DNA of 64,000 nt from an uncultured bacterium (lineage in GTDB: Bacteria > B130-G9), in the NCBI GenBank assembly GCA_965372715.1, contig CBDVDH010000016.1, forward strand, positions 1,744-65,743, read 5' to 3'. The position numbers and the translations under genes were made by a program. The notes beneath the pieces were generated by a model. It had not been told where the DNA came from. It worked only from the letters and a program-made list of their open reading frames with translations, and searched no databases. How positions within the stretch are numbered: the stretch's first letter is position 1; each line of letters starts with the position of its first letter. Shown piece by piece: positions 58,666 to 60,063 of this stretch.

Positions 58666-60063
58666 TCACTTCGCCAGCTGCTTGAGCATCTTTTGGACCT
58701 CGGGGAGACCGCCCTGGAAGACGAGGTAGCCGTCGTGGGGCTCGCGCTCCGTGATCTCGTCCATGACGGGCCTCAGCATCATCTCTATGACCTCGCCGCG
58801 CTCAAGCGTGTGACCCAGAACCCAACACAGCTTCATGTAGGCCACCTCGGGGAGCATGTTCGCCGCGGGCACGATGCCGCGCTGCATCAGCTCCCGCCCC
58901 GTCTCATAGACGAACATCTGAACAAAGCCCCACAGCGTCTGAACCGTCATGAAGACGTGGACGCCCTTCTCGCACGCTACCTTGATCGGCTCGTAGAGCG
59001 GCTTGTTCACGTGGCCCAGGCCAGTTCCCGCGATGACTATCCCCTTGTAGCCGTTGTCAACCAGCGCCTCGATTATGTCCGGCTTCATGTTCGGGTAGTA
59101 ATAGACGATCGAGACCTTCTCCTCAAAGGCCGTGTCGATAATCACATCCCTGTCGCTGCGCCGGCGATTGACCGGTTCTTTTAGCACAACGTAATCAGTG
59201 GGCGATACGAAACCGACGGGACAGTCGCTCAGCGTGCGGAAAGTGCTGCGGTAGCTGGAGTGCATCTTGCGGACACGGGTGCCTCGATGAAGTAGGCAAT
59301 ACTGGTCGCTCGTCGGGCCGAACATGCAGACCAGAACCTCGGCTATCTCGCCATACGCCGCCGACCTCGTGGCGTTGATCAGGTTGAGCGCCGCGTCACT
59401 TGATGGCCGATCGCTGGAGCGCTGAGAGCCAACGAGGATTATCGGCACGGGCGGCTTCTGTACCATGAAGCTCAGGATCGCGCTGGTATGGTGCATGGTA
59501 TCAGTTCCGTGGCCGATGACGACGCCATCGACGCCGTTTTCAATCTCACGACCAATGCTATTGGCGAGAGTGATCCACTGAAGCGGCGACATGTCCTCGC
59601 TGAAGATGCCGAAGAGCTTGATCGTCTCCAGGTTGCAGATGTCGGCCAGCTCCGGAACCGCGCCGTAGAGCTCGCCCGGCGAAAACGCCGGTATCACCGC
59701 GCCGGTTCTGTAGTCAAGGCGTGAGGCAATTGTGCCGCCGGTCCCGAGAAGTGTAACGTTCCGCTTACCGGGGTCTCTGGGGAACTCCTTCTCGGGTATC
59801 TTATAGTGCGCCTCCTTGTAGCCGACCTCCTTGATCTCGGTGATCGTGTTGACGTTAACGCCAATGTTGTAGCCCGTGCGGAGCTTCAGGACCATGTGCT
59901 GGTCGTCCGCGGTCTCAGACCGGGGCAGAATCAGTCCAACGTAGCCGCCTTTCGTGGTTGAGACCTCAACGTCGGCCCAGACCCTCGCGCCCAGGCTCGT
60001 CAAAACCTCTTTCGCACGACCGCGATAGCCCTTCAACTTACTATCTGAATCTGTTGTTGCCAT
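58666..60063 (-). CDS. gatD: Glu-tRNA(Gln) amidotransferase subunit D-like protein (archaeal-type GatD)
   Basis: Type I asparaginase core (GTGGTIASRLDYRTGAV, HGTDTM, GSQRSSDRPSSDA, GTRVRKMHSSYR) plus the ~85-aa N-terminal extension with VLKLRTGYNIG characteristic of GatD. Confidence 0.8.
   Translation of the reverse strand: MATTDSDSKLKGYRGRAKEVLTSLGARVWADVEVSTTKGGYVGLILPRSETADDQHMVLKLRTGYNIGVNVNTITEIKEVGYKEAHYKIPEKEFPRDPGKRNVTLLGTGGTIASRLDYRTGAVIPAFSPGELYGAVPELADICNLETIKLFGIFSEDMSPLQWITLANSIGREIENGVDGVVIGHGTDTMHHTSAILSFMVQKPPVPIILVGSQRSSDRPSSDAALNLINATRSAAYGEIAEVLVCMFGPTSDQYCLLHRGTRVRKMHSSYRSTFRTLSDCPVGFVSPTDYVVLKEPVNRRRSDRDVIIDTAFEEKVSIVYYYPNMKPDIIEALVDNGYKGIVIAGTGLGHVNKPLYEPIKVACEKGVHVFMTVQTLWGFVQMFVYETGRELMQRGIVPAANMLPEVAYMKLCWVLGHTLERGEVIEMMLRPVMDEITEREPHDGYLVFQGGLPEVQKMLKQLAK

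Follow-up and report, generated by a model that had tools for sequence, protein, structure and literature searches.

A distinct GatDE lineage in uncultured bacteria and, in Coatesbacteria, its linkage to a conserved tRNA-Gln paralogue

The window analysed here, 64,000 nucleotides of contig CBDVDH010000016.1 from an uncultured bacterium (assembly GCA_965372715.1), carries on its minus strand a gene, gatD, for one subunit of GatDE, a two-subunit tRNA-dependent amidotransferase that three reviews (up to 2022) regard as confined to archaea and as an 'archaeal signature protein' (PMC2330236, PMC2811023, PMC9499178). The partner gene, gatE, is encoded elsewhere in the same genome, and the phylogeny points to a separate lineage of the enzyme, called type 2 below, that has spread by horizontal transfer through many uncultured phyla of bacteria as well as some Thermoplasmatota. 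We hold, with slightly better than even confidence, that an active GatDE of this distinct lineage amidates glutamate on tRNA-Gln-type tRNAs alongside the bacterial amidotransferase GatCAB. The integrity of the genes, their catalytic residues, the presence of the partner gene, the structure of the clade, its co-occurrence with other routes to Gln-tRNA and Asn-tRNA, and the linkage and conservation of a tRNA next to gatE are all read directly from the genomes. The gene in the window and its recognizable parts are as follows:

58666..60063, minus strand: gatD of the type-2 clade (P0001), 465 residues, glutaminase/asparaginase subunit of a heterodimeric tRNA-dependent amidotransferase, from hidden Markov model (HMM) and PDB matches
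59830..59973, minus strand: GatD_N, the GatD-specific N-terminal domain, residues 31-78 (Pfam PF18195, 48.2 bits, cut-off 25.7)
59179..59760, minus strand: Asparaginase N-terminal catalytic domain, residues 102-295, containing GTGGTIAS, HGTDTM and K266 (Pfam PF00710, 180.5 bits)
58777..59118, minus strand: Asparaginase_C, the C-terminal domain, residues 316-429 (Pfam PF17763, 107.8 bits)
60123..60151, minus strand: promoter-like site of a monocistronic gatD, TTGCCA-17-AACAAT with TG, from a consensus scan

This gatD is a single intact open reading frame (ORF) with an ATG start at position 60063, and a Shine-Dalgarno sequence (GAGGA) can be read between that codon and the promoter-like site, both sites being consensus matches only and not functional evidence. 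The initial annotation had proposed an archaeal-type GatD on a bacterial chromosome, to be checked by comparing its scores under GatD and asparaginase models, and this proposal was borne out: the protein reaches 499.1 bits with NF003217 (cut-off 310) and 498.6 bits with TIGR02153 (cut-off 324), the two NCBIfam equivalog models for GatD, while the type I asparaginase model gives 381.8 bits, below both. Its top relatives in the PDB are the archaeal GatD chains 1ZQ1_A and 2D6F_A at 401 bits each, the alignment with the latter beginning at residue 12, and the best ordinary asparaginase in the same ranking scores 150 bits. All active-site residues are kept, namely the nucleophile T111 and the triad T187, D188 and K266, and the catalytic motifs GTGGTIAS, HGTDTM and RVRKMH are conserved in alignment with both archaeal structures. 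The model scores, the presence of GatD_N and the order of the PDB matches together rule out an ordinary L-asparaginase.

The host genome (G000) is a metagenome-assembled genome (MAG) of 112 contigs from the candidate phylum Coatesbacteria, 95.9% complete with an estimated contamination of 1.5%. As the initial annotation had observed, gatE is not in the window; an intact copy is present on a separate contig (G000:C37:6476-8419, minus strand, 647 residues), so that the two genes are unlinked. The GatE family model matches at G000:C37:6494-8392 with 467.6 bits (cut-off 319.6), and the protein is full length, aligning end to end with 1ZQ1_C and 2D6F_C. Of the two outcomes that the initial annotation named as refuting its proposal, a score typical of an ordinary L-asparaginase and a near-complete genome devoid of gatE, neither was obtained. 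Its residues H23, E166 and E193 correspond to H15, E157 and E184, the Mg-binding residues described for the GatE of M. thermautotrophicus (PMC2330236). Since GatDE usually serves as a marker of archaea, and since this MAG is fragmented and has some contamination, it could be suspected that an archaeal contaminant has entered a bacterial bin, or that the gene is a mere asparaginase after all; we give such an artefact a negligible probability. The contig that holds the window gene exceeds 64 kb, the G+C is even across the region, and the surrounding genes are bacterial: rpsB, tsf and pyrH of bacterial type, RNase HII (rnhB) and a flagellar rod/hook protein. C37 is likewise bacterial; gatE lies there among genes for flagellins, the secretin GspD and class-A RNase P RNA, and PilM is encoded on it as well. 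Moreover, both genes are kept in sister genomes, gatD in 6/7 and gatE in 7/7 of the Coatesbacteria. Archaeal contamination is therefore ruled out by the bacterial context of both contigs together with the conservation in relatives, and the asparaginase variant of this suspicion is contradicted by the model scores and by GatD_N.

Regarding the routes to Gln-tRNA and Asn-tRNA in this organism, glnS is absent from the 95.9%-complete genome, its sole match being a 69-bit cross-hit to GluRS, and there is one GluRS gene. Gln-tRNA must thus come from transamidation, and the GluRS must be non-discriminating. GatCAB is complete (gatA 625 bits, gatB 590 and gatC 84, all above cut-off and on three different contigs), so GatDE is a second amidotransferase here and not the sole route to Gln-tRNA. 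Asparagine is covered by asnS (469 bits) and asnB (501 bits), and both housekeeping tRNA-Gln genes, as well as the tRNA-Asn, have a U1-A72 pair and G73. Of the idea in the initial annotation that Gln-tRNA is made by an archaeal route, the need for transamidation stands, but with GatCAB complete and both tRNA-Gln of the U1-A72 type this route would be parallel at most. An archaeal-type tRNA-Gln imported together with the enzyme was considered and rejected, as the housekeeping tRNA-Gln are U1-A72 and the tRNA next to gatE, described below, is a paralogue of the host tRNA-Gln(UUG). Neither is GatDE compelled as the only asparagine route, given AsnRS and AsnB here and in complete genomes that lack GatB.

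A scan for relatives, with one genome per species, returned at least 597 related loci, mostly in bacterial MAGs and distributed over dozens of uncultured phyla of bacteria. Among the best 80 of these, GatD is 67-90% identical to the window protein; the closest, at 90%, belongs to a Candidatus Coatesbacteria MAG, and the other hosts are Zixibacteria, Caldisericota, Krumholzibacteria, Aminicenantes, Phycisphaerae/Planctomycetota, WOR-3, Ignavibacteriota, Bacteroidota, Latescibacteria, Fermentibacteria, Calditrichia and others, plus Thermoplasmatota archaea. In other bacteria with type 2, GatD is about 67-73% and GatE about 48-52% identical to the proteins of the host genome, and gatE and gatD are mostly adjacent and co-directional (64/86 loci hold both). 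A sample of 71 archaeal genomes around a closed Thermoplasmata chromosome showed a bimodal distribution of GatD identity to the window protein, with a canonical class at 35-46% and a second class at 66-73%, and seven of these genomes (G041, G051, G058, G064, G069, G080 and G107) contain both classes together, G041 also carrying two GatE. In several second archaeal copies of GatE the family-model match extends only to about position 510-575 of 622.

Phylogenetic analysis of 75 GatD sequences with IQ-TREE under LG+C20 recovered the canonical GatD group with 100% support and a tight type-2 clade, made up of 32 rows from bacteria and 15 from archaea, with 99% support on a stem of 0.92 substitutions/site. 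A pair of archaeal sequences, 50% identical to the window GatD and each the single GatD of its genome (G068:C44:185986-187188, L151, and G079:C28:174973-176175, L150), is sister to the tight clade with 100% support, and this lineage may mark the source of type 2; the GatE of both genomes matches its family model up to about position 555 of 622. Within the tight clade, bacterial and archaeal rows are interleaved and no branching order at the base is supported. FastTree had placed archaea at the base, but IQ-TREE did not uphold this order, and the tree favours no direction of transfer. The initial annotation was right that the window protein is a true member of the GatD family, but the gene is not a one-off import from archaea: its clade is spread across many bacterial phyla and is distinct from the canonical enzyme. 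The view of GatDE as specific to archaea fails for type 2, whose host here is bacterial and whose related loci are mostly bacterial.

Some other type-2 loci have ordinary tRNA genes beside them: a tRNA-Glu(CUC) is found immediately upstream of gatE in an unclassified bacterium (L082:3796-3872, plus strand), and in an Ignavibacteria MAG a tRNA-Asn follows gatD at a distance of about 370 bp (L041:5021-5096, plus strand).

Co-occurrence with the other routes was tabulated for 73 genomes with type-2 GatDE (59 bacteria and 14 archaea); these are mostly MAGs, in which absences are only as reliable as completeness, and the genomes reached through loci carry no completeness figures. The counts were:

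gatB: 31/59 bacteria, 0/14 archaea
asnS: match in 70/73
glnS above cut-off: 47/73, including 9 archaea
asnB above cut-off: 39/73

Among type-2 bacteria without GlnRS, 16/19 keep gatB and the remaining three look incomplete, while the near-complete bacteria without gatB, namely G010 (100%), G017 (98%) and G028 (94%), all have GlnRS and AsnRS, with AsnB in addition in G010 and G028. In none of the 73 genomes, therefore, is type-2 GatDE demonstrably alone in making Gln-tRNA or Asn-tRNA. It is surplus to known needs in every genome examined and occurs beside canonical GatDE in some archaea, which is how a paralogue with a partly different function would behave. A full GlnRS (645-755 bits, cut-off 426) was also found in nine archaeal genomes with type-2 GatDE (G041, G042-G045, G047, G050, G064 and G097), although a 2022 review describes GlnRS as missing from all archaea. 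In G041, the closed Thermoplasmata chromosome CP070751 (genome of L043), GlnRS (G041:C1:3897031-3898605), canonical GatDE and type-2 GatDE are all encoded on one chromosome.

The enzyme GatCAB serves tRNA-dependent asparagine synthesis in Thermus and Deinococcus. It is conceivable, although we consider it unlikely, that type-2 GatDE is in the same way an Asp-tRNA(Asn) amidotransferase, or a dual enzyme. Such a role would suit the many type-2 genomes that have GlnRS but no GatCAB, the archaea that have two GatDE systems without GatCAB, and G017, which lacks both gatB and AsnB; in the host itself tRNA-Asn and tRNA-Gln share U1-A72 and G73. On the other hand, AsnRS is nearly universal in the set and AsnB exceeds its cut-off in more than half of it; with AsnB present in the host and in G010 and G028, there is no genome that clearly needs an Asn-tRNA route via GatDE. 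Besides, the tRNA linked to gatE is Gln-like and not Asn-like, and modelling cited in PMC2330236 predicts a clash between the GatE insertion domain and class II AspRS.

An alignment of 59 type-2 and 30 canonical GatE sequences revealed where the two classes diverge. The Mg ligands are invariant in 59/59 and 30/30, respectively, while the tail motif GXXAXGX (scored as G..[AS].[GA] with a P after it) occurs in 23/30 canonical and 0/59 type-2 sequences; the latter have charged residues at this site, with the subsequent LMG retained, and the GatE of the host genome reads E-D-K-V-F-E-A there. With the tail motif lost, the substrate may have changed, and its absence would fit an altered tRNA specificity. 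It has been described that U1-A72 is read by a 3-10 turn of GatB, at a place where GatE has a short basic loop (PMC2811023). No such turn was seen in type-2 GatE, whose loop region has the length typical of GatE, 21 residues in all 89 sequences, with no insertion; an acquired GatB-like turn for reading U1-A72 is thus not supported.

The most specific clue to a substrate comes from the gatE locus of Coatesbacteria. On C37, ARAGORN detected a tRNA (anticodon UUA) that precedes gatE by 78 nt and is encoded on the same strand. In 7/7 Coatesbacteria genomes one tRNA stands immediately ahead of gatE, co-oriented with it and 78-132 nt away; these genomes span four genera and their GatE proteins are 68-93% identical. 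A metagenome scan added one further distinct copy, likewise in front of gatE, giving eight. The body of this RNA is a paralogue of the host tRNA-Gln(UUG), with which it shares the acceptor stem and T-arm. The 1-72 pair is A.A in 6/8, A.G in 1/8 and U-A in 1/8 (G003), the copy of the window genome having A1 opposite A72, unpaired. Position 37 is U or C in 8/8, U33 is missing in 2/8, and the anticodon is UUA in five, CUA in two and CUG in one, only U35 being invariant. By comparison, a survey of the host tRNAs, whose 1-72 heuristic may miss the mismatch of an initiator tRNA, found a purine at position 37 in 48/49 (all but the linked tRNA) and U33 in 49/49. The linked tRNA thus fails the description of an elongator tRNA-Gln (YUG anticodon, U33, purine 37, U1-A72), and both the mismatch and the unusual loop speak against a role in normal decoding; it looks unfit for reading codons. 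Reassignment of UAA to glutamine by the UUA tRNA was rejected as a general change of code, TAA being a common stop in the host, where it ends 292/1660 long ORFs, and close relatives carrying CUA or CUG instead.

Several measures indicate that this RNA is under selection: its mean pairwise identity is 85.6%, compared with 41% for both flanks and 68.7% for the gatE coding DNA; its stem positions are paired in 93.9% of cases versus 47-56% in slid controls; and the Rfam tRNA model RF00005 scores it at 51.2 bits (threshold 29). There is one compensatory change only, among seven close sequences. A covariance model built on the linked tRNA finds exactly one locus per Coatesbacteria genome, always beside gatE and at 88-104 bits, and retrieves only ordinary tRNA-Gln from the 69 other type-2 genomes (76 in all), so that an equivalent odd tRNA was not found in this search outside Coatesbacteria. 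The unlinked gatE genes of Ignavibacteria and Caldisericota also have no tRNA nearby. The class-A RNase P RNA gene mentioned above (294 bits; L184:2243-2621, plus strand, corresponding to about 9240-9618 of G000:C37) is situated about 670 bp from the linked tRNA, on the opposite strand.

The arrangement of the locus also allows for the tRNA-like gene being a regulatory leader or decoy that sets gatE expression and is not a substrate at all, GatDE then backing up GatCAB on ordinary tRNA-Gln. GatE would bind a tRNA-Gln mimic on its own transcript, or the mimic and free tRNA would compete for GatE, and in agreement with this a promoter-like site is found just upstream of the tRNA, no terminator-like site between it and gatE, and the spacing is always short. 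The parts that GatE would contact (acceptor, D-arm and T-arm) are conserved and the anticodon loop is variable. However, a complete tRNA with an encoded CCA is expected to be excised by RNase P and RNase Z and not to remain on the mRNA, no amidotransferase gene is known to have a leader that consists of a whole tRNA, and the consistent change at position 1 would be left without explanation. We regard this possibility as very unlikely.

The favoured reading, that type-2 GatDE is an active amidotransferase working in parallel with GatCAB, can be set out as follows. The window ORF would supply the GatD subunit and the gene on C37 its GatE partner, together forming a heterodimer. By analogy with the archaeal enzyme, GatE would bind the mischarged tRNA and phosphorylate the side-chain carboxylate of the attached glutamate, while GatD would hydrolyse glutamine or asparagine and release ammonia that is channelled to GatE to form the amide. 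Glu-tRNA would be provided by the non-discriminating GluRS, and both GatDE and GatCAB would amidate it. The recognition element is U1-A72 for bacterial GatCAB and A1-U72 for archaeal GatDE (PMC2330236, PMC2811023). Because the unpaired A1 of the linked tRNA removes the first of these signals and creates the A1 recognized by archaeal GatDE, this tRNA is, judging from synteny and sequence, probably the best candidate for the preferred client of GatDE in Coatesbacteria, and the mismatch should make it a poor substrate for GatCAB. A normal archaeal A1-U72 tRNA-Gln(CUG), immediately downstream of a type-2 gatE in a Thermoplasmata MAG (L035:3740-3813, minus strand), is a further point in favour.

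A number of points weigh against this reading. The activity of bacterial and type-2 GatDE is predicted from sequence only; the complete GatCAB of the host could do the whole job, and across the 59 type-2 bacteria GatDE nowhere visibly substitutes for GatCAB in Gln-tRNA synthesis. The tail motif that type-2 GatE has lost is implicated in discrimination between tRNA-Gln and tRNA-Asn. The linked tRNA was found in Coatesbacteria only and so offers no explanation for the clade as a whole, and the charging by GluRS of a UUA or CUA tRNA with a pyrimidine at position 37 is an assumption.

The gatE locus of Coatesbacteria contains a third conserved element:

L100:5476-6489 (on G000:C37), minus strand: radical-SAM/SPASM protein, 337 residues, its start overlapping the gatE stop

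This gene follows gatE in 7/7 Coatesbacteria genomes (68-96% identity), and the order tRNA, gatE, radical-SAM/SPASM is kept in all seven. This constancy has a bearing on the alternative raised in the initial annotation, that GatD has been repurposed, which receives some support because GatDE is surplus everywhere examined, the GatE tail motif is altered and a dedicated odd tRNA lies beside gatE. One form of repurposing would be that Coatesbacteria GatDE makes an amide amino acid on a non-decoding carrier tRNA, to be consumed off the ribosome; the radical-SAM/SPASM enzyme, whose gene is probably co-transcribed, would be one possible consumer. The pyrimidine at position 37, the loss of U33 in some copies, the drift of the anticodon among close relatives and the continued use of TAA as a normal stop would all be in line with such a carrier, as would the 1-72 mismatch, a classical feature that keeps the bacterial initiator tRNA off EF-Tu. 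Nevertheless, the idea is built wholly on synteny, gatD lies among housekeeping genes, the radical-SAM/SPASM gene was not found near gatDE in any other phylum, and no consumer of aminoacyl-tRNA (PEARL, cyclodipeptide synthase or Fem-type) was seen nearby; we consider this specific form improbable, to about the same degree as the asparagine role. A broader proposal, which we advance tentatively and with more doubt than conviction, is that type-2 GatDE is a functionally distinct paralogue which in Coatesbacteria is paired exclusively with a tRNA-Gln paralogue that does not decode, its product being used outside elongation and possibly by the radical-SAM/SPASM enzyme. The linked tRNA should be invisible to GatCAB because A1 is unpaired, and should be kept from EF-Tu and the ribosome by the pyrimidine at position 37 together with the 1-72 mismatch. 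That the enzyme is active, which tRNA it acts on and what becomes of the product are predictions in each of these scenarios.

Compared with archaeal GatDE (M. thermautotrophicus, PDB 2D6F with tRNA-Gln; P. abyssi, PDB 1ZQ1), the system shares the two-subunit architecture and the domain order, and each subunit can be aligned with its solved counterparts over the whole length. In GatD the N-terminal domain is followed by the asparaginase core, whose Thr nucleophile and Thr-Asp-Lys triad are in place; GatE combines the cradle domain and its H/E/E Mg site with the AspRS-like insertion and the YqeY-like tail. It differs from archaeal GatDE in its bacterial host, the U1-A72 tRNA-Gln, the missing GatE tail motif, the unlinked genes, the coexistence with GatCAB and the aberrant dedicated tRNA that precedes gatE, as well as in its separate clade (35-46% identity to canonical GatD versus 66-73% within the clade, the stem being supported at 99-100%). 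With bacterial GatCAB it has the overall chemistry in common, GatB being a paralogue of GatE, and in the host GatCAB is expected to serve tRNA-Gln and, if needed, tRNA-Asn; GatCAB differs in using an amidase-family GatA and the helper GatC instead of an asparaginase-like GatD, and in the 3-10 turn of GatB. The gatE-gatD operons of Bacteroidota, Ignavibacteriota, Aminicenantes, Phycisphaerae and others belong to the same type-2 clade, but their genes are mostly adjacent and many of these bacteria have GlnRS, whereas in Coatesbacteria the genes are unlinked and GlnRS is absent. The upstream tRNA-Gln paralogue and the downstream radical-SAM/SPASM gene at gatE are features of Coatesbacteria only, neither having been found elsewhere.

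Non-proteinogenic tRNA-Gly species of Staphylococcus serve cell-wall synthesis. Much as with these and the initiator tRNA, the linked tRNA keeps the body needed for charging and has features, a 1-72 mismatch and an abnormal anticodon loop, that would be expected to hinder EF-Tu binding and efficient decoding. Unlike the Staphylococcus species, it has a Gln-type body, is linked to an amidotransferase gene and is known from sequence alone.

The restriction of GatDE to archaea has been used in arguments on the co-evolution of archaeal tRNA-Gln and GatDE, on the absence of GlnRS from archaea and on the enzyme set of the last universal common ancestor (PMC2330236, PMC2811023, PMC9499178). These arguments are touched by the finding that a well-defined GatDE lineage is widespread in bacteria, that the same lineage stands beside canonical GatDE in some archaea and so behaves as a paralogue, that in no genome examined could it be shown to be the sole source of Gln-tRNA, and that a true GlnRS is present in several of the archaea carrying it. 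Database models already name these bacterial proteins GatD and GatE, and full-text literature searches, whose coverage leaves out most subscription journals, returned no paper on bacterial GatDE. What is new here is the paralogue status with coexistence in archaea, the pattern of never being the sole route, the missing tail motif and the tRNA-gatE-radical-SAM unit of Coatesbacteria. For the question of what GatDE does in bacteria, the linked tRNA provides a concrete candidate substrate and, if the pairing is true, it would constitute a naturally occurring orthogonal pair of tRNA and amidotransferase, which would interest tRNA biology and genetic-code engineering alike.

In the vicinity of gatD, a 138-residue ORF divergent from it (60217-60633, plus strand) has no Pfam or NCBIfam match. 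Two large ORFs just ahead of gatD (53016-55691 and 55984-58521, both plus strand, 891 and 845 residues) show weak matches only, to choice-of-anchor Q/NosD-like beta-helix models and to a PorZ-like segment (92.6 bits, cut-off 260), and are probably secreted or surface proteins. Elsewhere in the host genome, a tRNA-Sec gene with anticodon UCA is present at G000:C18:164-261, and the organism therefore probably uses selenocysteine.

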